Shown one piece after another: positions 31,929 to 55,775 of a stretch of 64,000 nucleotides of DNA. This DNA comes from Dehalococcoidia bacterium (GTDB lineage Bacteria; Chloroflexota; Dehalococcoidia; Plut-88900), in the NCBI GenBank assembly GCA_965197585.1, contig OZ240215.1, positions 416,001-480,000 on the forward strand. The letters are read 5' to 3'. Each line of letters opens with the position of its first letter. Within the stretch, counting starts at the first letter, position 1. The position numbers were made by a program, and so were the translations under genes. Under the pieces are notes generated by a model, which saw nothing but the letters and a program-made list of their open reading frames with translations, was not told the DNA's origin and did no database searches.

Positions 31929-31931
31929 CCG

Positions 31932-35051: not shown

Positions 35052-35165
35052 AGTGCTTAGGCTTCACCAGTCTCAGGTCTGAGAAGCTTAGACACCTAAT
35101 TAGAGTGCTCACCTTGGAAGTGTAAGTGCTGGAGTTAGGGACGTTGGGCAGTGCCGAGAAGAAGA

Positions 35166-39369: not shown

Positions 39370-39652
39370 AGATTGCCTCGCTTTCTACGTAGGGCCGAAT
39401 TTCGTGGCGTATTTCACTGTCGGTTGCGAGGTCCACCATCCGTCCCAGCAGGTCTTCCAGGTAGAATTGGGCACCGAAGTATGTGCGCCAATCCGGTGGG
39501 CTTGAAAACCGCACCAGGATGTCCACATCGCTCTTATCTGAAGCTTGGTCTCGAGCGAAAGAACCGAAAAGTGCGAGGCGCGTGACACCGAACCGCCTCT
39601 CAAGAGTCGGCTTGTGTTCCTTCAACGTATGGAGAACCTGTTCCTTGTTCAT
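39362..39652 (-). CDS. minimal nucleotidyltransferase (MntA-like) antitoxin
   Basis: LFGSFAR...SDVDILV...VDL; overlaps the HEPN gene. Confidence 0.92.
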   Translation of the reverse strand: MNKEQVLHTLKEHKPTLERRFGVTRLALFGSFARDQASDKSDVDILVRFSSPPDWRTYFGAQFYLEDLLGRMVDLATDSEIRHEIRPYVESEAIYV

Positions 39653-39832
39653 TGCCCTAACACCTAGGGAGCAGCGAATTCAGAAGCTATGGTCGTTCCA
39701 AGTGATGAGATTATAGCCTGAGCCACACGCGAACTGTTCTAGAGGGGCGAAGGCCAGTATTCGGCGCGGTTGGGTTTGGTGAGCTTGTTGGGCGAAGATG
39801 TGGCCATCAAGGCGTTGGGTAGAGTAATAGCC

Positions 39833-41080
39833 CTACCCAAGGTCATCTGCAAATTCAAACCCCTTTGAAGTAACGCGGAATATCTTTCCATCTCCGTGCA
39901 CATCCTCAATCAAACCGGCTTGAAGAAGCTCTTGAAGGTACTGTTCCCATTGAGCAGCTTCTCTAGCATTATCTGTATTGCAAAGGTGCTTGTTGTTTGT
40001 TGTAACCCTCAGCATACTCCCGTGCCGTAGTCTGATTATTTCCCCATCATCGCCTGACACTGCCTCCTTTAGAATGCAACATTCATCCTCTGAGAAATCA
40101 GGAAGGGCATCAATCGGCACTTGTGTCACCGCATCGGTTGTTGATTCTGGTGGCTTTTCATCTATCAGGGAAAGCGCAGCTTCAAAGTCTCCGGCTTTGA
40201 GCCAATCAGGATTCTCCAGTTTTATCGGGCACCCTGCCAGCTCCAGACGTTGCGCTAATTCTTGACGACTTTCGGGCGTGTCTTTGAATCGGACAGCATG
40301 AAGTCCAGCAATGTCACTGAACGGCCTGATATTGCCGAGTTCTACTAGCACCGTACGCTCATGGCTAGCAGCCATTGCCATACCTGCTTCGAACAATACA
40401 TTGGGCCTTGCTTGTCCAGTGAACTGTGTTTCATACGGAGGCTCGTTTTCGGACCAAAATTGTTTCTTAAGCCTGGCTTCATCATCCGGGGTGAGAAGTA
40501 TTACGACAGTGTGAGCGTGCGCGAAAGCGGCTTTCAAGATTTCGCCAATGTACGGGGATGGTTTACCAGTCATTGCGATTGCTTCGGTCCATGCTAGAGG
40601 GTGGAGGTCAATCGCTCTAAGGAATTCAAAAAGTGCTCCGCGGGCAGCGGTGTTCCTTCCATGAACAATGAACACTTCGCGAGTCTCTGCTGATGGCCTC
40701 TCAGCCAGACTGGGCTCGAGAGTTGTCCCTACATCACCTCCTGGAGGACCTGTGATAAATTTGGTTGTTACATCGTCTCCCATATCAGCGAGTATACGAT
40801 GTGGCAGTTTCCCGTGAAGGTCTACAGCCATAAAGACATTTCGGGATCCCTGCTTTTGAAGTAGGGTTTGATTTAGGTTTGTAGTATCGTCCTCAGACTC
40901 ATTTATCTGAATGCGTTCTATGTCTTCAGAGGGTACAGTTCTTCCGTCGATCACTATCGGTAAACCCTGTTCATACCTATAGACAAAGCGCTCGCGGAGG
41001 GCTTCCAAGCTGAGGTCCACTTCAACTTCAACCTTCGATGGCTTGGACTTTGATGTAATGCGTATGTGGTAGTAGGGCAT
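39833..41080 (-). CDS. TIR-like (Cap12/Pycsar-type) domain protein with extra N- and C-terminal domains
   Basis: VFIVHGRN, VILLTPDD, QARPNVLFEAG (catalytic Glu position), PFSDIAG. Confidence 0.85.
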   Translation of the reverse strand: MPYYHIRITSKSKPSKVEVEVDLSLEALRERFVYRYEQGLPIVIDGRTVPSEDIERIQINESEDDTTNLNQTLLQKQGSRNVFMAVDLHGKLPHRILADMGDDVTTKFITGPPGGDVGTTLEPSLAERPSAETREVFIVHGRNTAARGALFEFLRAIDLHPLAWTEAIAMTGKPSPYIGEILKAAFAHAHTVVILLTPDDEARLKKQFWSENEPPYETQFTGQARPNVLFEAGMAMAASHERTVLVELGNIRPFSDIAGLHAVRFKDTPESRQELAQRLELAGCPIKLENPDWLKAGDFEAALSLIDEKPPESTTDAVTQVPIDALPDFSEDECCILKEAVSGDDGEIIRLRHGSMLRVTTNNKHLCNTDNAREAAQWEQYLQELLQAGLIEDVHGDGKIFRVTSKGFEFADDLG

Positions 41081-41087
41081 ATAGCAG

Positions 41088-42380
41088 TCAACTCCCTCTT
41101 CTAAGCACCCGCACCCGACCCGTCAACAGCGCATTTGACGCAGACTCTTTCAGCTTTCGCAACCCCTCCCCTGCCCCTCGCCCATTTTCTATCAACTCGT
41201 CTGAGGAGTCCAGAATGGCAGCAATGTTTTTCTGTTCGGGAAGAGACGGCAGGGGAATCAGAATCTTCTTCAATCGAGACCCAGTGATTGACGGCACCGT
41301 ACTTACATTTGCGAATTCGGAGAGATCGATTGACTCAAACCACGCATAAAGATATCTGTAATCGCACCTCTGTCCTTCAGTTACAGTGATACCGACCATA
41401 TTGTTGTCGATAATAGTCGGAATACTCAATACTCTCTTCTTGTTAGTAGCTATAGCTGCCCCTACTTTAGGAAATACTATGCTTCCATACTGGAATATAT
41501 TTGCACCAAGTTCCTCAATGTCATTTAGGTCAACATAGTTATTGGCGCGACGTATGTAGCTCTCGTTGCCTTCCAAGGTCATGTCTGAGACCTTGATGAA
41601 GGGGAATTCACCTTGACGGCGTCCTTGTCTGTTCAGTGGAAAGCCAACGCCTCCCTTAACATCAGCAAATTCTCCCAGGGGGGTCACCTCCCAGTCAGTA
41701 GGGATGGTGCCTAGGCCCGGGACCTCTTTCCATTCGGTGTGGTGGCCGGGGAGGCCTCGGGTGAGGAGGTTGTGGAGGAGGGAGTCTCGGAGTTGCTCGT
41801 TGGCGGAGACCAGGGCGTCGGTGGCTTCGATGGCGTGGTCGATGGAGTCGAGGATGTTGGCGATGGCTCGCTGCTCGGGGAGGGGTGGGAGGAGGAGAGA
41901 TAAGGCATGCAATTCGTTCTTAGTGACGCCTTGTATGGTAGTACCTCGGGACTTACGTCGAAGTGATGTCGCTTCCCGTAACAATTGGCGGCAAAGAAAG
42001 CCTGGGTCTACATCATCGTTAGATGTTAAGCGGGTGATGTCTTGACTGGCTCCCATAACCTCAGTGGTCAATCCTGCGAGTCCTACTCTTGTTCTGGTGG
42101 CAAGCAACAGTGTCCCAGGTTCGCAAACTACTGTTTGACCTGAATGGAGCCCTTCGATAGTAAGGAATGAGCGGGCGTGCCTCCTGCTTAAGCGAAAGTC
42201 GGTTAAGTCAGCGCCCGTTAGGAACGGAATTTCTCCATTCCAATAGTCCGCCTCATTCTTGCGGGGAGTTCCTCCCTGACTTGTGGTCACTACGTCCCCT
42301 AAGGCCACGACGCACCACCCGTCTGGGACGAAACTATCTGACGATGCTGCAGTTCTTGAATTGGACAACGCCGTTGACAT
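41088..42380 (-). CDS. hsdS: Type I RM specificity subunit S
   Basis: Two TRDs; PPLPEQRAIA and PSLPEQKNIA; GTIPTDWEV; C-terminal LLTGRVRV. Confidence 0.93.
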   Translation of the reverse strand: MSTALSNSRTAASSDSFVPDGWCVVALGDVVTTSQGGTPRKNEADYWNGEIPFLTGADLTDFRLSRRHARSFLTIEGLHSGQTVVCEPGTLLLATRTRVGLAGLTTEVMGASQDITRLTSNDDVDPGFLCRQLLREATSLRRKSRGTTIQGVTKNELHALSLLLPPLPEQRAIANILDSIDHAIEATDALVSANEQLRDSLLHNLLTRGLPGHHTEWKEVPGLGTIPTDWEVTPLGEFADVKGGVGFPLNRQGRRQGEFPFIKVSDMTLEGNESYIRRANNYVDLNDIEELGANIFQYGSIVFPKVGAAIATNKKRVLSIPTIIDNNMVGITVTEGQRCDYRYLYAWFESIDLSEFANVSTVPSITGSRLKKILIPLPSLPEQKNIAAILDSSDELIENGRGAGEGLRKLKESASNALLTGRVRVLRRGS

Positions 42381-42768
42381 CTTCTAAATCACCCAAGAGT
42401 TTCGCAACGGAACCAGCACTTAGGCTCACAACCTGGGAATCTCGGCGGAACTTGCACTCAATGTATTTGTCTGGCCCCCCATATACCTCCTTGATGTGGA
42501 ACTGAACCGTGGATCCCGTGATATTGGTTATGGGGCCTTCGAATACACTGGACCTTTCAGCGTTCTTATAGGTCTCGACCCGAGTGGGATTTCGAGCCAA
42601 TTCATCTTGATAAAACTGGTACAACTCCTTGACGGGCATACTCGTGGGCAGGGGAGTAGGGGTAGGCACAGGAGTAGCGGTTGAGGCAGGCCCACAATAT
42701 GATGATAACAGCAACGCCACTCCTGCTAACGCCAGTAAACCGATCGTCGAATTCTTGGGGAATTTCAA
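42334..42768 (-). CDS. exported/membrane-anchored small OB-fold-like protein
   Basis: GGAG RBS and TTG start, hydrophobic signal, PTPTP linker, beta-rich domain ending FKNCSI. Confidence 0.55.
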   Translation of the reverse strand: MKFPKNSTIGLLALAGVALLLSSYCGPASTATPVPTPTPLPTSMPVKELYQFYQDELARNPTRVETYKNAERSSVFEGPITNITGSTVQFHIKEVYGGPDKYIECKFRRDSQVVSLSAGSVAKLLGDLEDVNGVVQFKNCSIVR

Positions 42769-42880
42769 TTTACAAACTCCTTTGCAATGTTGAATTGAAT
42801 CATGGCATCCACTGAACTCAGGTAAAATGGCCAGTTGAGGACTTGGTCGTCGGCAATGAAGACAACGCTCATATGGCTCC

Positions 42881-43909
42881 TTATCGGTGGTAGCCCAGCT
42901 CTGCAAGCAGAGCGTCCATCTTGGCAACGGCCTCGTCCCGGCGTTTTTCGGCCTCCCGGAGTTGGACCAACGCTTCCTCGACACTCATTACCTCTACCGG
43001 CTCCGTTGTGTCCACGTAGCGGCTGATGTTCAGGTTGAAGTCGTTGGCCTTGATCTCGTCCAGATCGGCGACGTGGGCGAAGCGGTCCACCTCCTCGAAG
43101 GCTTCATAGGCCTCGACGATCTTCTCGATGTGCTCCTTGTAGAGGAAGTTCTGGGCCTTGCCCTGCCGGAAGTAGTCCGGCTGGGCCGCGTCGATGAAGA
43201 GGACCTTTCCGCGTCGGGGTTCGGGCTTGGCCTTGTTCAGCACGCAAATGGCTACCGGGATGCTCGCCCCGAAGAAGAGGTTCGGGGCCAGGCCGATGAT
43301 AGCCTCGAACATGTCCGCCTCGACTATCCCCTGCCGGATCTTTCCCTCTGCGCCACCCCGGAAGAGGATGCCGTGGGGCATGACCACGCCGACCTGCACC
43401 GCCTGTCCCTGTACGAGATTGTACGCAGCGACCTCGCCGGAATACGGACTCGCAACAACCTCGCCGGACGCCCGAAGCGACTCCAACTCCAGCAACTCCG
43501 AACGGGCTAGGGCCAGGGCATCGGGAGCCGCATCGGGATTCGCTTCGAGAGTCGAGAGCCGGGCGCGAGCGAGTGCCACGTGCCGGCTCAGCTCGGGTAT
43601 CTTGATAAAGGCGATGGGCTGCCCCACCTCTACCGGGTCGCCCACATCGACCGGCACGTCGATGACGTTGCCCGTGATGTCGGAGATGACCGTGTAGCGT
43701 TCACCAGGCTGCGCGAGGACGCACTCGGAAGACAGGCTCCTCTCGACGCTTCCAAACAGGCCCCAGGCAACGAGGCCCAACAGCGCAATCCCCAGCCCGG
43801 CCACGATCACCCATTCATGGGGAGCCGTGACACGCAGCAGACCGTCTAGGGGCTCCGTCTGCCCCCTGCGCGCGAATGCCTCCTCGCGGAATAGCCGTCT
43901 CCTCGCCAA
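42881..43909 (-). pseudogene. in-frame chimera: NHLM-type HlyD secretion adaptor N-terminus fused to HsdM C-terminus
   Basis: LFREEAF..EPLDGLLRVTAP, TM helix and lipoyl-like segments, then VVMPHGILFRGGAEGKIR...NLFFGASIP...NDFNLNISRYV. HsdM SAM-binding and NPP(F/Y) motifs are absent. Confidence 0.85.
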
Positions 43910-44494
43910 ATGTCCATTCCCCCACGCGCTCTTTCTGGCGAGCGTTCAGGTCTCAGGCTCATGCGTCATCAGTGAAGCCGACACGGGTTCTGGTGAGCGC
44001 CGCGCCGGACTTCAGAGTTGCTCGTCGGAGCGCCTGATGTCCGTTCTGAACCCAGGGGAGAACACTTAGAGCGGGTGAAAGAGTGCCGGGTTGTGTTAGG
44101 GTAGGATGCCCGGCGAGTTGCTCCGATGTCTCGGGGCACCTTTTAGTCGGCCCCTCTTCTGAATCGAACGGAATCCTCTCGCGCCATCCGAGCTTCCATA
44201 GTCTATATTTTCGTAGTGTCAACGGTCAATGCAACGCGGCGAACCATCGACACCTGAGAATAGTCAGCGGCGCGGTACACACTTGCCTCTGGTCTGAGCG
44301 ACTTCTCGTGTTGAGGACGCGCCGTCGAGGCCGGTGCGACCGGCCCTGTCTTCGTCGGGGCGCATCAGCGAAAATGGGATTGCACCGCCCTTGTACCCGC
44401 TGGTGGGTGTGGCGTGGCCGCCCCCGATGAAGTGGTTGAGCCTCCAACCCTGGCGGGCCGGAGGCACCTGGGGCCTATCCGGTGTGGCCTGAGC

Positions 44495-44647
44495 GACTCC
44501 TTATATTAGGACCTCCCAGCGAAAAGTTCGCAATTCAGTCTTATCAGGCCCACGACACTGGACTCCTTACAGCAGGACCTCCCAGCGAAAAGTTCGCAGT
44601 ACAGTACACTCTGGCCCCACCAGACTTGGCAAAATCAAGAACCTTCA
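44495..44647. repeat. 66-bp tandem duplication plus dyad att-like site
   Basis: AGGACCTCCCAGCGAAAAGTTCGCA at 44508 and 44574; dyad GTTC-N14-TCTGG-CCCCA-CCAGA-N14-GAAC at 44592-44642. Confidence 0.8.
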
Positions 44648-44957
44648 CAATCAGGTTTTCTTTGTTGGTGTAATCGGTCATACATCCCCACACTACCCAA
44701 ACGCGAGTACCCATGCCTCTGCAGACGAAGCAGGGGCATTACTAGTGAACCAACCACCGCACGGAAACCCTGCCTGATAGTGCCCAAACAACACTCCGCT
44801 CGGCAGACCTGAACGCGAACGATGCTGACACGCCGCGTGCTTGCCCCTTTCTCTGCATCCTCACTATCATGTTATTCAAGAAAGTGGGGCTGTATCCGAA
44901 GTCCAAGTAAGTTACTCTACTTTTACCGGCGTTCAACGAAACTAGACGGCTGGAATA

Positions 44958-47900
44958 ATGTGTATGGGCTACTGTGATTCAGAGGATACAAACATCCCGG
45001 AAGAGACACTTAGTAACACTGGTTCATCGGAGTCGTTGGTGGGCATGAGTCCCTACGCCACTGGCGGAGGGGGCTTCACTTTTGAGCGGAAGGTGGCGGT
45101 CAAGTACTTGGCCCATCTCCTACTTGGCGACGGAGCGGTCGAATTCGGAGAAGGTCGACTTGCCGTCAACGTGGAGTTCCAGCAGGCTCCAGACTATCCA
45201 GTAGACGACTTGGTCATTCGCGCAGCGCGCCCTGAGGAGGCACAACCATCATTGGAACTCGCACTCGGAGTTCGCCGTTCACCGAATCTGGTGCGGAGTG
45301 ATGTGTCAACCCAGAAGTTGATCCGGGAGTTCGTTCGTGCCGTGATCAACGGAACTGCCGATTGTCTGGAATCACGCGTAGGGCTGGTCGTAGCAGGACC
45401 GCAGAAACACGCACAGCAACTAGGAAGCCTAGCTGGTCTTGCTGCAGCTCAGATGGATGCGCCCGGGTTCTTTGACCTAGTCCACACGCCAAAAAAATTC
45501 GATGAAGGGGTTCGAGGCCGACTTGAACACATGGAAAGCCTAGTAGAGAAAGCGCTGCGCGACCTCGGCGAGGCAAATCCTGATGCGGCACTGGTTCGGC
45601 AGCGCACGTGGCAACTGCTCTCGCGGCTCACTGTCCTGATGCCGCGGCTTGAGTCTCCGGATGAAACTGATTGGTCGGAAGTCGAGAACAAGTTAATACC
45701 TGTGGCGCGAGGCATAAGTCTGCCAGGAGCGGAGAAGTTACGCGACCGACTCTTCACCTTGGCTAGTGATTATTCTCCGAGATCTGCGAGAGTCGATCTC
45801 ACGATTTTGCGCCGTGATGCGCATGAAACTCTGGACACGAACTACCGGCGCCACCAGCAAGGATGGCAGATTCTCGATCATCTTCACGGTAGTGCGCTTC
45901 AGTCGTTGCGCTACGAGGTTACAGACAGCGACAGAATTCGCCGCGTGAGTCTTGATCGAAGTGCCGCAACCGACCGTCTCATCACAGCAGTTGGCGAGGT
46001 TGACGCTGTCATCGTAGTAGGTGAATCGGGTGTGGGGAAGAGCGCACTAACCGTTCGAGCTCTCAGTGCCGGGGACACTGACACAATGGGAGTTTTGTGC
46101 ATCAACCTACGACAGATACCGAGGCTGACAGTTGAATTCGAGGCTAGACTGGGCCTTCCCCTCGCCAATCTATTAGGGGAATTGAGCGCACCACTCCGTG
46201 TGCTTGTAATTGATGGAGCGGACGCCATCGCCGAAGGTATGGAAGACGCTTTCCGCTACCTGGTCATCTCCGCTGAGGAAAGCGGAGTGAAAGTCGTGGC
46301 TGTCTCCGGCATGGATGGCATGCAGGTCGTTGACGACATACTCACCGATCGCTTCGGTGACGGTGTGGTTAAGTTTCCGGTGGAATCATTAACCGACACC
46401 GAGCTAGAAGAAATAGTTGAGGCCTTCCCAGAACTGATAGGGCTCACCTCCAATCCCCAATCGCGGGAGCTATTACGGCGGCTCGTAGTAGTAGACCTAC
46501 TTGTTCGTGGCCAACTTGGAGGAGTTCCGCTTAGTGATGCGGACGCGATGCTGGAAGTTTGGTCGGGTCTCGTTCGTCGACATGAATGGTTGGATAAGGG
46601 ACATCCGGACGCCCGGGAGTCCGTGCTCCTGCGATTGGGAGAGTATTCTCTCAATGGCGGCGATAGGCTCGGAGTCATCGATCAACTCGACACGACCGCT
46701 ATCACTGGGTTGCGGCAGGACGGCTTGCTGCAAGCGTCAACTGACAATCCTTTCGTTAGTGGACCCGACTTCGCTCACGATGAGGTGCGCCGCTACTCGG
46801 TCGCTCGTCTGCTCATGCTCGAAAGAGACCCAGCCAAGAGTATCTTGCGCGCCGGAGCGCCGCGATGGGCGCTTGGGGCCGCGAGACTAGCGTGTCAGGC
46901 GTTGTTACAGGAGCCAGACGGAGCCACGTCACCGCTCCGCGGCAGATTCGATGCCTTGCAGGCCTCCTTCGACGCCCTCATACAAGCGAAACATGGGACC
47001 CGCTGGGGCGATGTGCCTAGTGAAGCCTTGCTTTCTCTCGCTGATCCTAGTGAAGTCCTCCGGGACGCGTGGGGTGCATTGCGCTCAAATGATGACGCGG
47101 GACTGAAACGGCTAGTTAGGCTTGTAGATCAGCGACATCGCGATAACAGCGGCATAGCAAATCTCGTTGTGGTAGAGCCAATAATCACGCTATTCCTAGA
47201 AGCCAGTGCGCCATGGCAGTCTGGCGATTTCTCCAGCAATCTACTGAGGCAATGGCTGATTGCGCACATAGTTGCGGGGACTCCGGCCGGATATCCTTTG
47301 CGCATTCTGCTTCGTGAGCGTCTCCTGAAAGCATATGTCGAAGGAGATTATCTGCTTCGGGAACAACAAAAGGCAGAGGAAGCAGCCCGAGTCGCTCGAA
47401 CGCTGGAGGAGGCCGAGGAAGAGCGCCCGCTCATGAAAGGCCCCCGCGACCTTTCTTCGACTATAGGCTACGGTGGACGCCAACGGCGCCAGCGGCCAGC
47501 AGTTCCTCGTGAGTGTAGAGACGAGGTATTCGTGGAACTGCTGGCTTTACTCGGGCCAGATCTAGGTGAGGAGGGAGAAAAAATCCTTCTCAGGATCGCT
47601 CGTGACGCACCTTCTTGTCTAGCTCCCGCGTTGGAGGAGTCACTAACGGGAGACGCACTCGCTGGCTATCGCCGCGGCCTCCTGGCCCATCTGACCCAGG
47701 CATACTACCTTGACGACGAGGCGGATGCTTCAGCATTTCTTAACGACTACGGGATCCGTGGTCACCGAAGCCGAAGACGAAGGGTGTTTGGGCCTCCCGC
47801 TGCTTGGTACCTTGGACCGTTTACGAGTTTATTTTTTTCTGACTTCCGCAACGGCGTCCGGGTACTCAACCTAATGCTCAACCACGCTGCGATCATTCGT

Positions 47901-50183
47901 GCACGCACTGTTGCCCGCCTGATTAGCATTACCGAAGACCATCGCGACATGGATGTCGAGCCTTACAGGGCACACCTAGGAATCACTGGAGCGAGTCAAG
48001 CATATGCCGGCGACGACCAAGTTTGGAGATGGTACCGAGGGACAGGAGTTGGCCCTTATCCATGCATGAGCGCATTGCAAGCACTTGAGCGTACGTGCGA
48101 CCAAATGATAAGAGTTGGCATTCCGATTACAACTCTGGTTTCGGTGCTGCTCGATGGTTGTGAGAACCTTGCGATGGTCGGCCTCGTCCTCGGTATTTTG
48201 GTGAGGCACGTTGAGCAAGCAGACTATTTACTATATCCGTACTTCACAGAACCTATCCTCTGGAGGCTTGAGTTCAGGCGAGTAGTCGACGAACAAGGCA
48301 TGTTTGCAGCCAGCTCTGAAGGAATCGAGGCACCCGACCGGCGCAAATGGTCGCTGCGAGAAGCAGCGATGTCCATGGCATTGGGAGCCACGGACGAGCG
48401 AGCCGAGGATCTTCGGTTGTTAGGAGAAACACTTATCGAAACAGCACGTCGAGAAATCAAGCAAGGACAAAGCGAAGATGGAATAGAGAATCAGGCCAAT
48501 GGCGGCGAAGACATTGAACAGCTCTTGGCACCTGTCCGTGCATGGGCCAGTAGCCTCGACCGTAACAAGTTCCAGGTCCGAGAGGCTGCGGATGGACTAT
48601 ATATCCAGGCTACGCCACCTCACGAAGTCGTTAAAGCACTTGAACTTGCAAACGAGGATCTGGAGCGGACTTCAGAGGAGATTCGGCTCACGGTTCGCTA
48701 CTACGTAAATCGCAAAGAGACTGAAGCAGAAGGAATCGAGGCTGGGGAATTGGTGGTCGACTTAGAGTCCGCACGTATGTTACTGGAGAACCCTCCGACT
48801 GTCAGTGCACATCTTCCCTGGGATGTGCCGGCCCTAGTAGTTGCTGCGGCACTCGAGGCCTACGTACTACAACAAGTTGACCTGCCAGGTGATGCATTGA
48901 CGTTCGCCGTTGACACGGTGTTACAAGTCTCAGAGATTTCGGAAGATGAAGCGTTCCGGAGACCCTTCGAATTCGAGGGCACTCTATTCGAACAAGGCGC
49001 AGACCGCAGTGCCGCGAGGGTTGTGCCACTGCTACTGACACCTTCTGCTGAGCCTTTGCGCGCGATTGGGGCGTCCGCAGACGAGTCGGTCACCGTCAAG
49101 CGCATTTCTGACGCTGGCTTGCTCCTTGCACGAGCCGTAGCCGATGAAGTGCGGCTCCACCTCGCACGCGGACTTCACCACCTCTGGGCAACGCCGTGTG
49201 TTAACCACGGGACTTGCCATCATCATACAGGGTTCGAGATCGTCAACGAGACCTTGCGCGATTGCGCGCTCGGTGAATGGGATCCCGAGTTAGAAAGACG
49301 TTCTATAGTTTTGCTTGACGAACCTATATCCGTCTCACTAGCGAACACATCTGACGATGCCATTATTGTTAGTCGCCTTGATGCATCGATACGAGCACTA
49401 GCACCTGCGTCCGCGGCTAATATTTGCGTCTCCAGCTTTGCAAGGGAATTGCTTATGGTCGTCCTCACCACTCAGAGACGATGCTTGCTCAACTACAAAC
49501 ACCCCAGCGTGGATGATCGAGGAGATCACTCCCTTGTGAGTGCGCGAGCTTTGTTGACATTAGCCGAGCACGGCGATGATGGTCCCCTACACGAGCACAT
49601 TGGTGCTTATTCTTACAGCCCGGGTCTCCTGAGCAAGCTGCTTCAAGCGCTGTCGGCGGCAGCGGAAGAGACTGAAAACCTCGCCTCAACCGCACGGCGG
49701 ATCTGGCCAAGCGTGATCCGTCAGGTAATGGACATGCCATACGCAGGACATTCACTGTTACAGGGCAGAAACTATGAAGGGACACCCATATCAGTGCTCT
49801 TGCCAAATGCAACCCCGCAGAATTCATATCTATACCAAGAGATCCGAGGAATGCCAATCGTTTGGTGGGAACCACTGGCATTAAAGGCGGAAGTCGATAC
49901 ATGGATTGGGTCTGCAGTTGGGAAAGCAAGGTGTGCCGACCAACTCATAGGTTTTCTCAGGCCTCTTTCCGCAGAAGATCAGGCTCGCGTTGGGATACCT
50001 TGGTTGTCCACTATCGTATCAGGGAATCTTGGTGACATTGCCAAGAGTAGTTTCCTGTTGACTGATTGGCTGATTGAGACGCGTTCTGCTGCTGCCGCGG
50101 TCGGCCTCTCAGCTCAATGGCAGCAGATGGTTGACGCCCTCGTAGTTGAAGGAGTCGCAAGACTTGCGCCATATTCCGAATAG
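44958..50183 (+). CDS. large STAND/NACHT-like NTPase with N-terminal nuclease-like domain (Avs/NLR-like defence protein)
   Basis: N-terminal GGGGFTFERKV...VDDLVI, Walker A GESGVGKS, Walker B LVIDGAD, FAHD, long helical C-terminus; start uncertain. Confidence 0.75.
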   Translation: MCMGYCDSEDTNIPEETLSNTGSSESLVGMSPYATGGGGFTFERKVAVKYLAHLLLGDGAVEFGEGRLAVNVEFQQAPDYPVDDLVIRAARPEEAQPSLELALGVRRSPNLVRSDVSTQKLIREFVRAVINGTADCLESRVGLVVAGPQKHAQQLGSLAGLAAAQMDAPGFFDLVHTPKKFDEGVRGRLEHMESLVEKALRDLGEANPDAALVRQRTWQLLSRLTVLMPRLESPDETDWSEVENKLIPVARGISLPGAEKLRDRLFTLASDYSPRSARVDLTILRRDAHETLDTNYRRHQQGWQILDHLHGSALQSLRYEVTDSDRIRRVSLDRSAATDRLITAVGEVDAVIVVGESGVGKSALTVRALSAGDTDTMGVLCINLRQIPRLTVEFEARLGLPLANLLGELSAPLRVLVIDGADAIAEGMEDAFRYLVISAEESGVKVVAVSGMDGMQVVDDILTDRFGDGVVKFPVESLTDTELEEIVEAFPELIGLTSNPQSRELLRRLVVVDLLVRGQLGGVPLSDADAMLEVWSGLVRRHEWLDKGHPDARESVLLRLGEYSLNGGDRLGVIDQLDTTAITGLRQDGLLQASTDNPFVSGPDFAHDEVRRYSVARLLMLERDPAKSILRAGAPRWALGAARLACQALLQEPDGATSPLRGRFDALQASFDALIQAKHGTRWGDVPSEALLSLADPSEVLRDAWGALRSNDDAGLKRLVRLVDQRHRDNSGIANLVVVEPIITLFLEASAPWQSGDFSSNLLRQWLIAHIVAGTPAGYPLRILLRERLLKAYVEGDYLLREQQKAEEAARVARTLEEAEEERPLMKGPRDLSSTIGYGGRQRRQRPAVPRECRDEVFVELLALLGPDLGEEGEKILLRIARDAPSCLAPALEESLTGDALAGYRRGLLAHLTQAYYLDDEADASAFLNDYGIRGHRSRRRRVFGPPAAWYLGPFTSLFFSDFRNGVRVLNLMLNHAAIIRARTVARLISITEDHRDMDVEPYRAHLGITGASQAYAGDDQVWRWYRGTGVGPYPCMSALQALERTCDQMIRVGIPITTLVSVLLDGCENLAMVGLVLGILVRHVEQADYLLYPYFTEPILWRLEFRRVVDEQGMFAASSEGIEAPDRRKWSLREAAMSMALGATDERAEDLRLLGETLIETARREIKQGQSEDGIENQANGGEDIEQLLAPVRAWASSLDRNKFQVREAADGLYIQATPPHEVVKALELANEDLERTSEEIRLTVRYYVNRKETEAEGIEAGELVVDLESARMLLENPPTVSAHLPWDVPALVVAAALEAYVLQQVDLPGDALTFAVDTVLQVSEISEDEAFRRPFEFEGTLFEQGADRSAARVVPLLLTPSAEPLRAIGASADESVTVKRISDAGLLLARAVADEVRLHLARGLHHLWATPCVNHGTCHHHTGFEIVNETLRDCALGEWDPELERRSIVLLDEPISVSLANTSDDAIIVSRLDASIRALAPASAANICVSSFARELLMVVLTTQRRCLLNYKHPSVDDRGDHSLVSARALLTLAEHGDDGPLHEHIGAYSYSPGLLSKLLQALSAAAEETENLASTARRIWPSVIRQVMDMPYAGHSLLQGRNYEGTPISVLLPNATPQNSYLYQEIRGMPIVWWEPLALKAEVDTWIGSAVGKARCADQLIGFLRPLSAEDQARVGIPWLSTIVSGNLGDIAKSSFLLTDWLIETRSAAAAVGLSAQWQQMVDALVVEGVARLAPYSE

Positions 50184-50222
50184 TCCACATATGGAATTCA
50201 TGGCAACACGTGAGAGACGAAC

Positions 50223-50260
50223 TGTCGGCCCCTCAACAACTGGTGTTGACGGGGTCGACA
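50223..50260 (+). terminator. strong hairpin after the STAND gene
   Basis: TGTCGGCCCC-TCAACA loop TGTTGA-CGGGGTCGACA; no U-tract. Confidence 0.4.
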
Positions 50261-50362
50261 TCTGATAGAGGAAGGTCGCTTGACTCATGCCGGGCGACTG
50301 CCGGCAATACTACACTAAGGCGAACCTCATTGCGGAATGGATTCGGATCCTATCCTTACCGA

Positions 50363-50394
50363 CCCACCAGACTTGACAAAATCAAGAACTTTCA
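50363..50394 (+). repeat. att-like half-site, direct copy of 44616-44647
   Basis: CCCACCAGACTTGACAAAATCAAGAACTTTCA, 30/32 identical. Confidence 0.8.
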
Positions 50395-50583
50395 TTTGAC
50401 GGACTCAATCGACACGGAAAACTTAAGTACTCGTGGGCGGTCGGTTTGGGTCCGTTCAAGCCAGGTCAGATTGTTAGACAGTAGTGTGCCACACAACAGC
50501 CTGCCGGAGAGGATGGGGCCGCTGGGACTATGCGTGATGCGAGCAGCGGCCCCGCGAGATTCCCTCCAAAGCGGCCCGCGTGG

Positions 50584-51258
50584 TCAATCATCCAGCAGCC
50601 CGTTCTGCGCAGCCCACACCACGACCTCCTGCTTCGAGTCGACGCCCAGCTTGATCTAAATGGTGTAGATGGCGTTTCGGACGGTGACCACCTTGACTCC
50701 CCTTGCCGCCGCAATCGCAACGTATGACATGCCCCGGCAGAACGACACAAGTATCTCCTTCTCCCTCTGGGTCAGGTTGACGTCCTTCGCTCTCGCCCCG
50801 CTCCGCATCCTGTGGAACACCCGCCTCACCACCTCGGTCGGCAGACGCCCCTCGCCCGCAGCCGCGCTCTTCATCATGCCCAGGACCTGGTCCATCCCGG
50901 CCACCTTCTGAAGATAGCCGGCCGCACCGGCGGCCACCGCCTCTATGACGGCGTTCGCCTCCGTCGAGGCGGTCAGCATGAGCACCCGTGTCTTGGGCAG
51001 AGACTCCATGATCTCCCGGCACGCCTCCACCCCGTCCATCTTGGGCATCATGACGTCCATGACGATCAAGTCGGGCGACAGCTCGGAGGCCGCCTTCACC
51101 GCCTCCACTCCGTCCCTGGCCTGCCCCACCACCTCGAACTCCTCGGACCGCTCCAGAATCACCTGAAGACCTTCCCGCGTGACTGAATGGTCGTCGGCGA
51201 GCAGCACCCTTATGCGACGAGACTCTGTTGACAATTTATCCCTCCTGTTGTCCGCCAC
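50584..51258 (-). pseudogene. NarL/LuxR response regulator with premature amber stop
   Basis: Intact receiver (LADDH, MDVMMP, YLQK) and LTQREKEIL HTH. After TAG at 50656-50658 the frame continues IKLGVDSKQEVVVWAAQNGLLDD*. Confidence 0.85.
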
Positions 51259-52459
51259 CGGACAATGGCATCACGCAGGTCACGCTGGCGCCCCCGGCCG
51301 GTCCCGTGGGCTCGACGATAAGGCGTCCGCCCAGACGCCCGGCGTACACCCGCATGTTTGCGAAGCCGTGGCCCCGCTCCTCGTAGTCGTCGGGAAGGCC
51401 CACCCCGTCGTCCGACACCGACAGCCTGAGCTCATCCCGTCCGAAGTCGAGATCGACCAGCACCCGGCTCGCCCCGGCATGGCGAAGGGCGTTGGCGAGG
51501 GCGTTGTGGGCTATGGAGAACAGGAGACTCCTGACCTCCACCGAAAGCGGCGGCTCCACACCGTTCTGCGTCAGCTCCGCCGACACCGACGTGATGGACT
51601 TGAACGTCGCGACGTGCGAGTCCAGGGTCCAGCCCAACTCACCGCCCTCGAATATGCGGCCCATGTCAATCGGGTGTCTCAGCTGCCAGACGGCGGTCTT
51701 GGAAAGCCGTGAGGTGGCATCGAGCCTGGCGGCGAGCTCTTCGTTCGAGTCTCCGGCAACCTGTCTGGCCGCGTCTATCCCCAGGCCGATCATGAAGGCG
51801 GTCTGGGCGGCCGTATCGTGAATGGCCTGGGAGAGCTCGATCCATTCCCGTTGCAGCTCCCTTTCCCTTTCTATCGCCGCTCTCGCCCTGCGCCGCTGAA
51901 ACCGGGTGATGAAGTTGACAACCAGGACAACCCCGAACATCGCGAGCACCCTGGAGAACAGCATCTTCTCGTTGATCCCATCGAAGGCCATGCCCGAGCC
52001 GACGGTCAGGCTCACGCCGATATATATGGAGGCGGTGATGGTCGTCCAGGTGAGATTCAGCAGAGCGGAGGTGAAGATGGCGGCAAAAGCGGCGAGGGCA
52101 GGATAGTAGGGAATGTAAAGGAAGTTGTCGAAGCCCCCATCGACGCCGCCGCTGGCCGTGATCAGGGCTATGTCCATGGCGCTGAGGACGAGCAGGTGAC
52201 GCCACGTCACCCTGCGCCGGGAGAGCAGACGGTAGTGCACGTAGCCGTTGAGTGCGACCAGCGGCACGTGCATGAGCATGAACGGAATGTACTTGGCATG
52301 GGTGAACGTCGGTCGATAGGCGAGTTCGATCACGGCGCCGGCCCAGAAGAGCCAGCGTAGCCACACCGTGACCTTGGCGGCGTACGATGCCTCGCCCGGG
52401 TCGAGCCAGAGCATCTGGAGAAGCCGCGTCTGTATTGCGCCCATCGATGTCTTTATCAA
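51236..52459 (-). CDS. membrane sensor histidine kinase (HisKA_3), paralog of 14427-15686
   Basis: ELSQAIHDTAAQ, WQLRHPIDMGRIFEG, NALRH, DDGVG. Confidence 0.9.
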   Translation of the reverse strand: MIKTSMGAIQTRLLQMLWLDPGEASYAAKVTVWLRWLFWAGAVIELAYRPTFTHAKYIPFMLMHVPLVALNGYVHYRLLSRRRVTWRHLLVLSAMDIALITASGGVDGGFDNFLYIPYYPALAAFAAIFTSALLNLTWTTITASIYIGVSLTVGSGMAFDGINEKMLFSRVLAMFGVVLVVNFITRFQRRRARAAIERERELQREWIELSQAIHDTAAQTAFMIGLGIDAARQVAGDSNEELAARLDATSRLSKTAVWQLRHPIDMGRIFEGGELGWTLDSHVATFKSITSVSAELTQNGVEPPLSVEVRSLLFSIAHNALANALRHAGASRVLVDLDFGRDELRLSVSDDGVGLPDDYEERGHGFANMRVYAGRLGGRLIVEPTGPAGGASVTCVMPLSGGGQQEG

Positions 52460-52896
52460 CTACAGGCCCCTATTCCGATACGCAAACTAACCCCCCTGAT
52501 GCCAAGGGGCGCCGGAGCCCAGTTGGATGACACCGGCCCGCCGGTCGAACTTGCGCAGCAACCTCGCGCCAGCTTGCCCCCAGCCTCTGCAGCGGGAACA
52601 GTGGCACATACACGGTGTGGCGCTCCAGCCAACCCGAGGCCGGTACGCCAGCTGCACACAGCTGAAGGCGGTCACGAACCGGTGTGCCCGGACCAGTTAG
52701 GCCGCGACGTATCTCAGCCAGTCCGGGTCCAGGAGGATGAACATCGAACCGCTCCTCCCGAAAGACTCTGGCGGCTATCCCCGTTGGATGAAGGCCCCGG
52801 CTTTGGCGAGGCGCCTGAGACATCTCCTCTCCTGTGAGCGCGTGAGACCATGGAGTGTTTGGTGGTCACGACGGTGCGTAGATGACTATCAATCTA

Positions 52897-53032
52897 GCCA
52901 CTTTAGATTATGTCTACAAGAGCAAAAAGTTGCAGAAACACACTCTCTCAGAGCTAACACTATTGCCGTCCCAAGAGTGTGATTGGGCACTTACCAAAAC
53001 GATGCAGAGCCTCTACCGTTTTCATGGGCAAT
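52897..53032 (+). promoter_or_regulatory. conserved upstream element, copy 1
   Basis: Collinear with 55776-55912; both copies lie upstream of surface-protein genes. Confidence 0.6.
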
Positions 53033-53127
53033 ACCGTTCAGATGACAGGCGGAGCTTAAGGCTGGCACCCCACTCAAGATAAGGGTAGTTCTACCGGAGG
53101 ACCTGTTCCCGACGCAAAAGGGAAGCT

Positions 53128-54393
53128 ATGACATTTCGAAGACCCAAGCTGCCAATCAAGACTGCGGTAGCCATGGCGCTGCTGGTGACGGCCGTCGTTG
53201 CCGCCTCAATGTCCATCCCGCCGAGTGGTACGGTCCTGGCCCAGTCTCCCGGCATCTGCGGCCGCACGCAGAAGGTGCAGGACGCCATCCTTGCCAAGCT
53301 GTCAGACGTTACCGCCTGCGGGGACGTCACCGATGCAAACCTGTCAGGGATAACCGGGACGCTTGCTCTGTCCGATATGGGTGTGACCACGCTCAAGTCC
53401 GGGGACTTCGCCGGTCTCAGCGGGTTGCAGGAACTGAAACTGGACGACAACCAGATCAGCTCGCTGCCCGAGGACATCTTCTCCGGACTCGCCGGACTCG
53501 AACGCCTGAACCTGACCTTCACCGAGGTGAGCTCGCTCCCGGAGAACCTGTTCGACGGCCTGACCAACCTACAGAACCTGAAGCTGTACCAGAACGGTCT
53601 TACGGCGCTGCCTGAGGAAATATTCGATGGCCTGACCAACCTGAAGGATCTCACATTCACCGCCAACAAGGTCAGCGCGCTCCCGGAGGAAGTGTTCGAT
53701 GGGCTAACTAGCCTCAACTCACTGGAGCTCCCCAGGAATTCGGTCGCTGCATTGCCGGAGGAGGTGTTCGACGGGCTCACCAACCTGATGGCCCTGAACC
53801 TGCACCAGAACAAGATCACCGCGTTGCCCGAGGGGGTGTTCGACGGCCTCGGCAATTTGACGTGGTTGTACCTGAGCAGGAACGAACTCACGGCGTTGCC
53901 CTCGGGCGTATTCGAAGACCTTGGCGAACTGCAGCAACTGACCCTGTTCAACAACAAAATCACGGCGTTGCCCTCAGGCGCGTTCGAGGGTCTGGGCGAT
54001 TTGAATTCCTTAGTCATGAGTCATAACCAGATATCAACATTGCCCGCAGGCGTGTTCGAAGGCCTCGGAAATCTGGATAGCGTGGAATTCGACCAAAACC
54101 CCGGGGCGCCGTTCACCATCACTGCGGAGTTGGAAAAGAAGGGCGCCGGTGTGGTCGTCAGTATCGACGAGGGAGCTCCGTCTTCGTTGTCGGTAACCCT
54201 TTCGGCCACGGGGGGCACGCTTTCCACGGACACTGTCACCATCGCTCGTGGCGCCCTGGAGAGCGAGACCGTCACCGTGACGGCATCCGGCACGGTCACG
54301 GTCAGCGTCGATTCGGTTGCTAAGAGTGGGACCAGGCTCATAGGTCTTGAGATAGTCGCCGGCAGTGACCTGACGCTTGTGGGGGGGATGTAG
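53128..54393 (+). CDS. secreted leucine-rich-repeat protein
   Basis: Signal peptide, Cys N-cap GICGRT...CGDV, about 10 LxLxxNxITALPEGVFDGL repeats, beta-rich tail. Confidence 0.9.
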   Translation: MTFRRPKLPIKTAVAMALLVTAVVAASMSIPPSGTVLAQSPGICGRTQKVQDAILAKLSDVTACGDVTDANLSGITGTLALSDMGVTTLKSGDFAGLSGLQELKLDDNQISSLPEDIFSGLAGLERLNLTFTEVSSLPENLFDGLTNLQNLKLYQNGLTALPEEIFDGLTNLKDLTFTANKVSALPEEVFDGLTSLNSLELPRNSVAALPEEVFDGLTNLMALNLHQNKITALPEGVFDGLGNLTWLYLSRNELTALPSGVFEDLGELQQLTLFNNKITALPSGAFEGLGDLNSLVMSHNQISTLPAGVFEGLGNLDSVEFDQNPGAPFTITAELEKKGAGVVVSIDEGAPSSLSVTLSATGGTLSTDTVTIARGALESETVTVTASGTVTVSVDSVAKSGTRLIGLEIVAGSDLTLVGGM

Positions 54394-54532
54394 ATGGCCC
54401 GCCCATACAACAGCGGAAGAAGCACGGCCATGGACGGCGCACCGCGTCGCTCAGCATTCGAGCTACACAGGGTCCCACCGATAGGAGTGACAGATTGAGG
54501 GAACCCACATGGAGACGGAGAGGAGGAGACCG

Positions 54533-55609
54533 GTGAGGAAGCTGCGATTCCAGACGACGGCCGTTCTGGCTGTCCTCGTCCCGCTTCTCCTGGTCGCCTG
54601 TGGTGATGGGGATGCTGGGTTGTCCCGCGCCGAGGTTGAGGAGATCGTGCGCGCGGAGATTGCGGAAGCGCCTGCGACGCCCCAGTCGGAACGCGGGCTT
54701 ACCCGCGCCGAGGTGGAACAGATAGTGCAGGACGCCATCGCGGACGTCCCCGACCCGCAACCGGGACTCACGTCCTCGGAGGCAGAGCGGATAGCCCGCG
54801 GCGTGATCGCGTCCATCCCGCCCAAGTCCGCCCTTGCCGAGTACACCCGGTACTTCGTGGGCAACGCCGTCAGCCTATACGAGACCCAGGGACTCGACGC
54901 GACCCTGGCCTACTACAACCGCCCGGAGAGCATCGACGGCCAGTGGTACCTGTTCATCATCGACGAGAATGGCCTCGCCATCGCTCACCCCGACCCGGGC
55001 CGCCTGGGACTCGACCTAAAGGGCTGGGTGGGGACCGACGCCAACGGTTACAACTTCGGGCCGGACATGCTCTCAGCCACCGAGGAGGGCAAGTGGGTGT
55101 CCTACGTATACAGGAACCCGGAGAGCGGCGGACTCGGTTCCGACAACACCGGGGCCATGCAGCTCAAGAACGCCTGGGTTGTGAAGCACGATGGGCTGCT
55201 GTTCGCCTCCGGCTGGTATGTCAACGCCGACGAATTCACCAGGTCCCTGGTGTTCGCCGCCGTTAACAAGTTCCGTTCGGCAGGACTGGAAGCGACCATC
55301 GCATACTTCACTGGCCCCGAGAGCGTCTATTCAGGACTGGCAGCGACTATCGACTACTACAACAGCGCCCAGACCGTCGAAGGGGAATGGTTCGCGTTCA
55401 TAGCCGACAGCAGCGGCACGATCGTAGACCACTACAACAAAGCACTGGTGGGAACGGACCTCAAAGACCTGCTCGGCACGGATGTGTTCGAGGCCACCGC
55501 AGAGGGCAACTGGGTGACCACGGAGGACGTGCGCGTTTGGGTGGTCGGCTACGACGGGATGACCTTCGGGTCGGGCTGGCATAGCGGCCACGACGAATCG
55601 GGTAGCTGA
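54533..55609 (+). CDS. stand-alone tandem Cache-domain lipoprotein
   Basis: AGGAGG RBS and GTG start, lipobox LLVAC, three GLxxAEVEEI repeats, YLFIIDENG..IAHP and GKWVSY...FASGWY Cache motifs, then a second copy. Confidence 0.75.
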   Translation: MRKLRFQTTAVLAVLVPLLLVACGDGDAGLSRAEVEEIVRAEIAEAPATPQSERGLTRAEVEQIVQDAIADVPDPQPGLTSSEAERIARGVIASIPPKSALAEYTRYFVGNAVSLYETQGLDATLAYYNRPESIDGQWYLFIIDENGLAIAHPDPGRLGLDLKGWVGTDANGYNFGPDMLSATEEGKWVSYVYRNPESGGLGSDNTGAMQLKNAWVVKHDGLLFASGWYVNADEFTRSLVFAAVNKFRSAGLEATIAYFTGPESVYSGLAATIDYYNSAQTVEGEWFAFIADSSGTIVDHYNKALVGTDLKDLLGTDVFEATAEGNWVTTEDVRVWVVGYDGMTFGSGWHSGHDESGS

Positions 55610-55775
55610 GCGGAGGGGGACCCGTCGCTCGGTTTTCCGGGCAACAAGGGCCGCATACATGGATACGTCCGAGCTTCGAAGGCGGCGGGAGAACGGGCTT
55701 GCTTAGGCCCTCCCGGCTGACGGCTTGGACATCCCATTGCTTAGGGGATTGCGGTCGTCCGTGAGAAGGATTGGT

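Follow-up and report, generated by a model that had tools for sequence, protein, structure and literature searches.

The repeats that flank a large STAND-like NTPase gene in the genome of a Dehalococcoidia bacterium (GCA_965197585.1, contig OZ240215.1) most likely record the assembly of a genomic island and do not reveal a new cassette system. They are attachment (att) half-sites of large serine recombinases (LSRs), overlapping the 3' ends of the recombinase genes, and they probably persist as orphan sites from serial insertions, the interval that holds the gene being the cargo of an R-ended element now deprived of its recombinase and its L end. The window is the whole stretch analysed, 64,000 nucleotides (positions 416,001 to 480,000 of the forward strand of the contig); positions are those of the window unless genome coordinates are indicated, and the left and right arms of the repeat are called L and R.

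Repeats around the STAND-like gene

The features of the locus are as follows:

44437..44466, minus strand: hairpin of the L-side repeat unit, 11-bp stem, just past the stop of the minus-strand tail frame
44495..44553, plus strand: L1, P-type half-site abutting a brief stretch of foreign DNA on its right (attR-like junction); on its minus strand is a frame of 12 codons, TELRTFRWEVLI, closed by a stop
44561..44617, plus strand: L2, P-type half-site; LSR genes of the related genome G011 have its core GTTCGCAGTACAGTAC as their 3' coding end, and on its minus strand is the frame TVLRTFRWEVLL, closed by a stop
44592..44642, no strand: attP-like dyad L2/R, with 43 nt between the outer GTTC and GAAC
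44616..44673, plus strand: left R arm, with the intact 17-codon tail frame PDLAKSRTFTIRFSLLV and its stop at 44671-44673
44841..44870, plus strand: promoter-like site of the large gene (consensus scan only, 9/12 matches), inside the interval and outside the arm
44958..50183, plus strand: gene for a 1741-aa P-loop NTPase, STAND-like, Walker A motif GESGVGKS
50184-50362: x, the left flank of the right R arm, which is not an arm
50363..50399, plus strand: right R arm, its tail frame shortened to PDLTKSRTFI by a stop after 10 codons
50395..50527, plus strand: ~130 nt rightward of the right R arm, which accompany the R arm in relatives

The first-pass annotation had described a dyad of the form GTTC-N14-TCTGG-CCCCA-CCAGA-N14-GAAC at 44592-44642, a tandem copy of its left arm 66 bp apart, and a 30/32 copy of its right arm across the STAND-like gene, and all three are present in the sequence. 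The two left-arm copies (44495-44551 and 44561-44617) agree at 82% of 57 nt and have an identical 25-nt core. The right-arm copies at 44616-44647 and 50363-50394 differ by two mismatches in 32, and none of 100 dinucleotide-preserving shuffles yielded two matches for either arm. The break of homology at the dyad centre, which had also been pointed out, is real and general across a 12-genome search: most right-arm-only matches begin at query 126-128 (window 44615-44617) and most left-arm-only matches stop at query 126-134 (window 44615-44623), one left-arm-only subgroup stopping sooner, at query 118-121. The repeats extend further than first described, from a left start near 44437, with a hairpin common to the G003 and G010 copies, to the end of the 17-codon reading frame into which the left-hand R copy continues. 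The stretch at 50395..50527 recurs at 74-87% identity in several places in G003, G011, G037, G005 and G006, its co-travel with the arm being read from matches to query 8364-8528 that start at the first bases of the arm.

The gene itself resembles known defence proteins only distantly. Its product has a weak AAA_22 match in Pfam and a weak match to the NTPase region of Avs4 (E 2.9e-4, 18 bits against a cut-off of 1500), PADLOC assigned no family either to it or to the 822-aa NTPase described below, and NACHT or nSTAND labels stand on 11-40% of the members of its atlas look-alikes; any role in defence is putative. The GC content is 55.1% at the gene compared with 62.6% and 62.3% in the flanks, and the consensus scan found two promoter-like sites where 0.3 were expected. 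The gene is present in one of 41 genomes, this one alone, with no relatives in the 40 related genomes or in the metagenome contigs. Four homologous loci occur in public genomes at 43-70% identity (Dehalococcoidia, Acidimicrobiia and Thermoanaerobaculia MAGs), and no arms were found within as much as 5 kb to either side of them (a shorter stretch on the downstream side of locus L022). The neighbours of the interval are type I restriction genes on the left and a two-component system on the right.

Two other readings of the arms and x were considered and rejected. An nhmmer alignment (E 0.007) hinted that x is a decayed L arm, but local alignment did no better than shuffles, scoring 14 where the shuffles averaged 15.2. 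A loose likeness of the arms or x to tRNA fragments was seen by eye only, and a search of 44350-50600 with Rfam matched neither tRNA nor any other family, even with E as high as 10.

Link of the arms to large serine recombinases and tRNA genes

Copies elsewhere in the genome and in relatives, which the first-pass annotation had suggested looking for, were found: the arm query gave 14 further matches in the own genome and 2-26 places in 10 of the 11 family genomes, so the arms are a dispersed family and not private to the locus. R copies of 94-100% identity occur in other genomes, and the partners joined to R include tRNAs, L arms, unrelated DNA and a FecCD gene truncated at position 250 of its 311-position profile. 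The peptides read from the arms at the outset (TVLRTFRWEV and PDLAKSRTF) proved to be conserved frames with fixed stops (24 of 30 R copies, 16 of 17 L copies).

The suggestion that these arms are LSR half-sites overlapping recombinase 3' ends was borne out by the LSR junctions in relatives and by read-through from LSR genes across an arm into tRNA sequence. There are 82 matches to the Resolvase domain, in nine of the 12 family genomes, and many of them form convergent pairs ~2648 bp apart (G011, G006, G008, G001, G003); in the five LSR pairs fetched, the common sequence is limited to the ~3.2 kb of both genes. At the tail-to-tail junction of both measured pairs (G011 and G006) lies a dyad that shares its outer motifs and R-side sequence with the locus, has a spacing of 42 nt, and whose L side is near-identical to L2 in G011 and a related L variant in G006. 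For LSR2 and LSR3 of the own genome and one LSR of G011, an L-type arm is read through into a reverse-complemented tRNA 3' end. The R arm stands straight after the CCA of tRNA-Val, tRNA-Ile and tRNA-Lys (six copies in relatives, one here) and, in seven copies, after L-type LSR 3'-end sequences. The best NCBIfam matches of the LSRs are CcrB models, far under the family cut-offs.

The window was correctly said to hold no serine recombinase: the four of the genome all lie elsewhere, the closest to the locus being 15 kb past the window end and of a different clade. Three LSRs of the own genome are of the matching clade, and LSR2, with ~80% DNA identity to one G011 LSR, might act on the sites of the locus; the closest L2-type recombinases are those of G011 and not of the own genome.

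The spacing of the arms matches the attP/attB geometry of LSRs, in which attP-type half-sites are longer. The site at 44592-44642 has the form usual for LSR att sites, an imperfect dyad of ~40-50 bp with the crossover at its middle. From the outer GTTC to GAAC there are 42 nt in eight of the nine attP-like sites measured and 43 nt at L2/R, whose centre has one C more than the eight other composites, leaving the LSR frame and the tail frame out of phase at this locus. The same distance is 36 nt at six of seven tRNA/R junctions and at three of three arm/tRNA junctions, and 42 nt compared with 36 nt implies half-sites of 21 nt and 15 nt. In the available text of Rutherford et al. 2013 (PMC3783163), the zinc-ribbon motif of attB is shifted inward relative to attP, with which the arm geometry agrees; the half-site shift given there for the Listeria integrase is 5 bp, and it is 6 nt per half-site here.

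This geometry, the sharp break at the centre and the swapping of partners would not be expected if the repeats were mainly transcription signals, small RNAs or MITE-like units, for instance a terminator and promoter module spreading with defence genes, with a merely secondary likeness to recombinase ends. We regard that possibility as highly improbable, although a stable hairpin that could act as a terminator follows a stop codon in the L unit, R contains TTGACA and lies 170-310 nt upstream of two ATPase genes, and the repeats are present in very many copies. The hairpin has no U-tract and folds no better than shuffles (z-score only -1.5, 96 nt folded), the promoter-like site of the gene lies outside R, the Rfam search gave no family for the arms, and terminal inverted repeats and target duplications were not seen in the copies inspected (unscored).

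Islands and a proposed history of the interval

Three further features place the locus within a larger island:

30482..30572, plus strand: tRNA-Ser(cga), the island attachment point (ARAGORN, Rfam)
30573..64000, no strand: in-window part of the 53.4-kb island, which extends to genome position 499953, ~20 kb beyond the window
30732..31928, plus strand: P4-type tyrosine integrase (Pfam Arm-DNA-bind_3, Phage_int_M, Phage_integrase)

The 53.4-kb stretch is a tRNA-targeting island with a P4-type tyrosine integrase. Its empty-site alleles are found in four of eight genus relatives (G005, G001, G006, G007), where the tRNA-Ser 3' end directly precedes DNA homologous to genome positions 499954-504000, and the last 19 nt of its far arm repeat the tRNA-Ser 3' end. 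Among the L-family copies, four long ones (155014, 428771, 499711 and 3384190, genome coordinates) lie at the ends of tyrosine-integrase islands, and the three that were aligned all finish in the 19-nt tRNA-Ser copy. These positions would suit arms that served as att sites of the P4-type integrases themselves. In the long copies, however, the L motif lies ~265 nt from the tRNA-Ser core that the integrases use, the short copies, those of the window included, do not have that core, and the crossover at which partners are swapped is the dyad centre and not the tRNA-Ser repeat, so that we consider this reading extremely improbable. An IS110-type element with a non-coding leader was also considered for the long copies and rejected: the genes ~380 nt downstream of them encode a tyrosine integrase and an amidohydrolase rather than DEDD transposases. 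An integron gene cassette, also considered, would call for an IntI-type tyrosine recombinase with attI and for cassettes that end in attC hairpins; the tyrosine recombinases characterised beside arm copies and tRNAs have P4-type arm-binding domains.

A sister site in the own genome shows the LSRs at the ends of an island. The 3' end of tRNA-Glu(ctc) adjoins DNA homologous to genome positions 296520-298985 in G003, G005, G001, G004 and G002, while in the own genome the two are separated by 84.6 kb, the five relatives representing empty-site alleles. The ends of this 84.6-kb island are occupied by LSR1 and LSR3, facing outward, and both have L-type arms, inverted relative to each other; the break falls at the terminal bases of the tRNA. 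A second NTPase gene (NACHT-like, 822 aa) lies within this island, also between L arms.

From this comparison a history of the locus can be proposed. The arms are the two half-sites of an attP-type site of CcrB-like LSRs that are common in the bacterial family, and crossover takes place within the recombinase gene, at its 3' end. In the L arm lie the final conserved codons of a plus-strand LSR and in the R arm likewise those of a minus-strand LSR, and past the centre each arm encodes another brief C-terminus and the stop that closes it; since both arms keep short frames and fixed stops, the tail of the enzyme would vary with the state of the element. The elements would target the CCA end of tRNA genes, plus look-alike sites. 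At the locus, L1 is probably an old attR-type junction (17 of 20 positions agree, counted by eye and unscored, between its right flank and that of the junction of LSR1 itself), L2/R would be an attP-type joint between two adjacent imported pieces, and x/R at 50363 the left end of another R-ended piece. With the recombinase gone, the 5.7-kb interval with the STAND-like gene would then be the cargo of an R-ended element, sitting in the mosaic 53.4-kb island. The order of these events is inferred, and the sites of the locus are presumably inactive at present.

Several observations fit this history less well. No allele without exactly 44616-50362, which the first-pass annotation had proposed to look for, was found in the 40 relatives, and the left and right flanks of the interval were adjacent in none of them, so insertion as a unit is unsupported. 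The arms are well preserved, the left R tail with its 17 codons being intact, which fits sites in use equally well as relics. The half-site shift of 6 nt, compared with 5 bp, the extra central C and the finding of the closest L2-type LSRs in G011 also sit uneasily with it. Standard attP x attB integration does not account for a chromosomal attP-type joint (L/R), which would have to come from a dimer, from an element that inserted at a hybrid site already there, or from carriage on another element.

The first-pass annotation had gone beyond the identification of half-sites, which stands, to propose that the gene is a discrete cassette loaded in trans at a reusable site. In such an active exchange L/R would be the dock, the gene with x/R would have entered as a circle and could exit again, and the LSR would be encoded elsewhere in the genome, much as ccr-less cassettes move in staphylococcal SCC arrays. 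The direct R repeats (30/32) around a single gene with its own promoter-like site, the GC dip between them and the bracketing of the 822-aa NTPase by L arms are consistent with it, as are the conservation of the arm frames, near-identical across genera, the three LSRs of the matching clade, and the best matches of the LSRs to CcrB, a family proposed in the available text of PMC3146451 to mobilise neighbouring elements. The two R copies that flank the gene are, however, the same half-site, attP-like on the left (L/R) and attL-like on the right (x/R), a pairing not known from the available text of PMC3783163 to be recombined by serine integrases; x is not an arm, the tail frame of the right copy is truncated, no homologue with arms was found among the public loci or the metagenome contigs, the 40 relatives offer no empty site of exactly this interval, and the locus as a whole lies within the tRNA-Ser island. 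The proposal of a discrete cassette is not supported, and active exchange in trans appears possible but rather unlikely.

The metagenome data, four runs from two studies, consisted entirely of assembled contigs, which cannot reveal rare forms. Contig depth was hundreds to thousands over the arms compared with ~14-48 over the gene in the two runs that best hold it, and contig continuations past 44553 and 44617 were heterogeneous. One contig joins 44614 to 50363, which would fit active exchange, but it has only 27 nt on its shorter side, lies wholly in repeats that are multi-copy in the community, and comes from a single run; other contigs join 44532-44543 to 50363 with 6-16 foreign letters, i.e. 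they are different composites. If the L and R stubs were live, together they would make up an exchange network across the community, where a small number of LSRs acting in trans shuffle defence and sensor modules between tRNA ends and existing junctions. The tail swap at each crossover (17 codons from R, 12 from L, or a tRNA-encoded tail when integrated) would then be a built-in switch by which the enzyme senses whether its element is free or integrated; this is an unlikely scenario.

Comparison with known mobile elements

Staphylococcal SCC elements form arrays moved by CcrA/CcrB, which also move ccr-less cassettes; their site uses the end of a host gene (rlmH), and all cassettes stack at a single locus. 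The family described here resembles SCC in its LSRs of the CcrB kind, its recombinase-less cargo blocks between repeated sites, and a site that overlaps a gene 3' end, so that insertion alters the tail of that gene. Unlike in SCC, the gene used here is the recombinase itself and the sites are scattered.

Within the same bacterial class, as judged by the nearest homologues of the gene, the ssrA islands of Dehalococcoides carry a CcrB-like serine recombinase, DsiB, and those without a recombinase module were proposed to move with their neighbours (McMurdie et al. 2011, PMC3146451). As far as the available text of that paper describes them, the ssrA islands share with the present family a CcrB-like LSR beside the edge of the island, a target in the 3' portion of a gene for a small stable RNA, and the adjacency of several islands. 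They differ, on the same text, in using one tmRNA gene, whereas the targets here are tRNA CCA ends and look-alikes at many loci; in boundaries of 20-bp direct repeats, compared with a constant arm and a varied partner here; and in that the site here lies inside the recombinase's own 3' coding end.

Site-specific accretion and cis-mobilizable elements, treated by Guedon et al. 2017 (PMC5704250), offer a further parallel. The features outlined in the accessible parts of that source (decayed elements with kept att sites, tandems arising from insertion into a resident att site, mosaic islands) recur here; the cases described there involve mostly tyrosine recombinases. A cis-mobilizable element needs attL and attR in the terms of that text, whereas the interval has attP-like and attL-like (x/R) sites and therefore falls outside the definition.

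With respect to the att sites themselves, the arms resemble those of canonical serine integrases, as set out in the available text of PMC3783163, in being imperfect ~50-bp dyads, in having the distal motif nearer the centre in attB-type half-sites, and in having hybrids of intermediate length. They differ from the sites presented there in the many recombinase-less attP-type copies within chromosomes and in the peptide tails encoded by both arms. As in multi-targeting LSRs (Durrant et al. 2022, PMC10083194) and Tn4451-type elements (per PMC5704250), in so far as the available portions of these sources cover them, one family has several targets that resemble each other and the joint of the element; unlike for the multi-targeting LSRs, the target range here is deduced from junctions only. 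A crossover inside the recombinase's own 3' end is an unusual site design, and no description of it was found in the literature, which was not queried for it directly.

Were the orphan sites still in use, serine recombinases would have their own equivalent of cassette systems, from which small natural attP/attB pairs aimed at tRNAs could be drawn; as relics, they would make the locus no more than an ordinary mosaic island. In this family the arms L and R reliably mark the start and stop of imported DNA, and can be used to dissect islands with restriction, TIR, NTPase and sensor genes.

Left and right arms around the large gene

The left arm is tandemly duplicated at a spacing of 66 bp and the right arm (R) is found again beyond the large gene with two mismatches, as the first-pass annotation had reported. 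The features concerned are:

44495-44551: left-arm copy L1
44561-44617: left-arm copy L2
44616-44647: left R copy, forming with L2 the dyad L2/R
44958-50183 (+): STAND-like large gene, 1741 aa, the one long gene between both R copies
50363-50394: right R copy

Two matches to either arm were obtained in 0/100 shuffles. The GC content is 55.1% between the R copies, compared with 62.6% and 62.3% in the flanks. The repeat extends further than first described, its left start lying at about 44437, where a hairpin is common to copies in two other genomes; the left R copy runs on rightward as a short reading frame with its stop at 44671-44673. The large gene has a P-loop and gave weak NTPase matches and no match to defence models. 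Of 41 genomes, one was found to contain it; the closest homologues (43-70% identity) belong to MAGs of three phyla, and no arms were found beside them.

More copies of each arm were detected by BLAST and nhmmer elsewhere in the genome. The window corresponds to positions 416001-480000 of one 3.43-Mb contig (GC 59%). A survey of 12 family genomes with the query 44490-44670 gave 15 matches in this genome, the query itself included, and 2-26 per genome in 10 of the 11 others. Matches with only the right arm start mostly at window positions 44615-44617, and those with only the left arm end mostly at 44615-44623 (a left-arm-only subgroup ends earlier, at query positions 118-121); the match ends therefore place the break in homology inside the central CCCCACCA, where it had been proposed. 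In public metagenome contigs the arms reach depths of hundreds to thousands, with heterogeneous continuations past 44553 and 44617; large-gene depth is ~14-48 in the two runs holding the gene best.

Arms, recombinase 3' ends and tRNA genes

None of this genome's four genes for large serine recombinases (LSRs) lies in the window, in agreement with the earlier statement that the window holds no serine recombinase. The family contains 82 Resolvase-domain matches spread over 9 of 12 genomes (38 of them in G006), many forming convergent pairs with catalytic-domain starts ~2648 bp apart. Five convergent LSR pairs were fetched:

L024: pair in genome G011
L025: pair in genome G006
L026: pair in genome G008
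L027: pair in genome G001
L028: pair in genome G003

All five consist of overlapping genes in a ~3.2-kb unit, with nothing in common beyond the two genes. Such a pair may be either a two-enzyme module or the joint of two elements. The two pairs measured (G011, G006) carry a dyad at the tail-to-tail meeting point of the LSR genes, which shares outer motifs and R-side sequence with the window dyad and has a spacing of 42 nt; on the L side it differs little from L2 in G011 and has a related L variant in G006. By our own reading of the printed sequences, the L arm in these two pairs corresponds to the final conserved codons of the LSR on the plus strand, and the R arm to the reverse complement of those of the minus-strand LSR.

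In LSR2 and LSR3, two LSRs of this genome from the same clade as LSR1, reading continues via an L-type arm directly into reverse-complemented tRNA-Glu 3' ends, and a G011 LSR with an L2-matching arm likewise reads into a tRNA-Lys end. R arms follow the CCA end of tRNA-Val, tRNA-Ile or tRNA-Lys in six fetched copies from relatives, and one in this genome likewise follows the CCA of tRNA-Lys(ttt); seven copies follow L-type LSR 3'-end sequences. At genome 168186-169067 (locus L003), a FecCD permease gene is cut at profile position 250/311, exactly at the R-arm start, and the lost end did not turn up elsewhere in this genome.

The L-type arms could be placed at an insertion outside the window:

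Genome 298986-383577 (loci L035, L037): 84.6-kb insertion at the 3' end of tRNA-Glu(ctc)

The site is empty in five relatives (G003, G005, G001, G004 and G002), where the tRNA-Glu(ctc) 3' end stands beside the homologue of genome 296520-298985, and in this genome the two are separated by the 84.6 kb; homology to the empty sites ends at the terminal bases of the tRNA. LSR1 marks the left end of the block and LSR3 the right end, the two genes pointing outward, and an L-type arm lies at each end in inverted orientation. This comparison of empty and occupied sites shows the L-type arms to be the half-sites joining such elements to the chromosome. In a circular form of the block, LSR1 and LSR3 would be convergent with a site between them. 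A second NTPase gene, NACHT-like and 822 aa long, also lies in this block and is flanked by L arms on either side.

Two further features were observed. At L007 (genome 1829675-1831766), an R stub is joined to the tRNA-Lys(ttt) CCA end, and after it comes a 601-aa SMC-like ATPase matching the PADLOC model mad3 (E 9e-38); between tRNA-Lys(ttt) and the next shared gene, G007 and G006 are shorter by several kb. A conserved stretch (~300 nt) lies upstream of LSR1, LSR2 and LSR3 (genome 301232-301530, 2665486-2665785 and 381686-381985, respectively); the printed sequence, as we read it, may encode a small ribbon-helix-helix-like protein, a candidate regulator or directionality factor.

Site geometry and reading of the locus

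Spacing from outer GTTC to GAAC in three site classes
attP-like composites: 42 nt in 8/9; window site 43 nt
tRNA-R junctions: 36 nt in 6/7; one of 38 nt
Arm-tRNA junctions: 36 nt in 3/3

Spacings of 42 and 36 nt therefore correspond to half-sites of 21 nt (element-type) and 15 nt (target-type). The motif shift is thus 6 nt here; Rutherford et al. (PMC3783163) describe an attB distal motif that sits 5 bp nearer the centre than in attP.

The peptides first read off the arms proved to be conserved frames: 24/30 R copies have an open 17-codon frame with a stop in the same place, and 16/17 L copies have a 12-codon opposite-strand frame with a fixed stop. The left R frame in the window is intact and the right one stops after 10 codons. 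At an attP-type joint, the arm peptides would be C-terminal tails of recombinases reading across the centre.

At the locus itself, L1 and its short right flank form an attR-type junction, and L2/R is an attP-type joint, whose centre has one C more than other composites, so its two frames are out of phase. The junction at 50363, between R and its left flank (50184-50362), is attL-type, and that flank is not an arm. The interval thus has two ends of the same kind, not the attL and attR that would flank a cis-mobilizable element, and recombination between attP-like and attL-like sites is not described for serine integrases (PMC3783163). Consequently, we read the arms as orphan junctions from successive LSR-borne insertions in a mosaic island, and we infer a sequence of insertion events at the locus. 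On this reading, the STAND-like gene would have been carried as cargo by an R-ended element whose recombinase was lost. The arms are well preserved, with near-identical copies in other genera, and so may still be active with a recombinase supplied in trans; we consider this unlikely, and favour orphan junctions.

SCC arrays are among the closest described systems. So are the accretion of decayed elements (PMC5704250) and the Dehalococcoides tandem ssrA islands, which have a CcrB-like recombinase and neighbours lacking one (PMC3146451). These three differ from the present case, in which the recombinase gene carries the site in its own 3' end, each arm encodes a tail, many tRNA ends serve as targets, and recombinase-less attP-type stubs are abundant. 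No description of a site of such design was found in open-access text, in which the feature itself was not queried directly.

The surrounding tRNA-Ser(cga) island

30482-30572: tRNA-Ser(cga), followed by a P4-type tyrosine integrase

In G005, G001, G006 and G007, tRNA-Ser(cga) directly adjoins the homologue of genome 499954-504000; the stretch from window 30573 to ~20 kb beyond the window end is therefore an island of 53.4 kb. The last 19 nt of its far arm duplicate the tRNA-Ser 3' end. Besides the arms and the large gene, the island encodes a two-component system and a type I restriction system that has a TIR gene between its subunits.

The TIR-domain gene (39833-41080 (-), 415 aa, between hsdS and hsdR) is of CAP12/Pycsar type in Pfam and PDC-S35 in PADLOC, with low GC (47-56%). 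hsdM (42334-44447 (-)) is apparently split across several reading frames; since some metagenome contigs show single-base insertions/deletions at 44054-44470, the breaks may reflect either genuine frameshifts or errors of assembly. The genes for a response regulator and a histidine kinase (50570-52459 (-)) form a multi-copy pair, with a 93% identical copy at genome 226210-227612, copies 86-92% identical in three other genera and metagenome-contig depth in the thousands. A second P4-type tyrosine integrase (10614-11900) is followed after ~600 nt by a ~290-nt conserved minus-strand arm, one end of which has an L motif and the other a degenerate tRNA-Ser 3'-end copy; the region 10614-12860 is probably another island's remnant. 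At 22787-23299, adjoining tRNA-Arg(ccg), a match to Phage_integrase is interrupted by two stop codons and is probably a decayed integrase.
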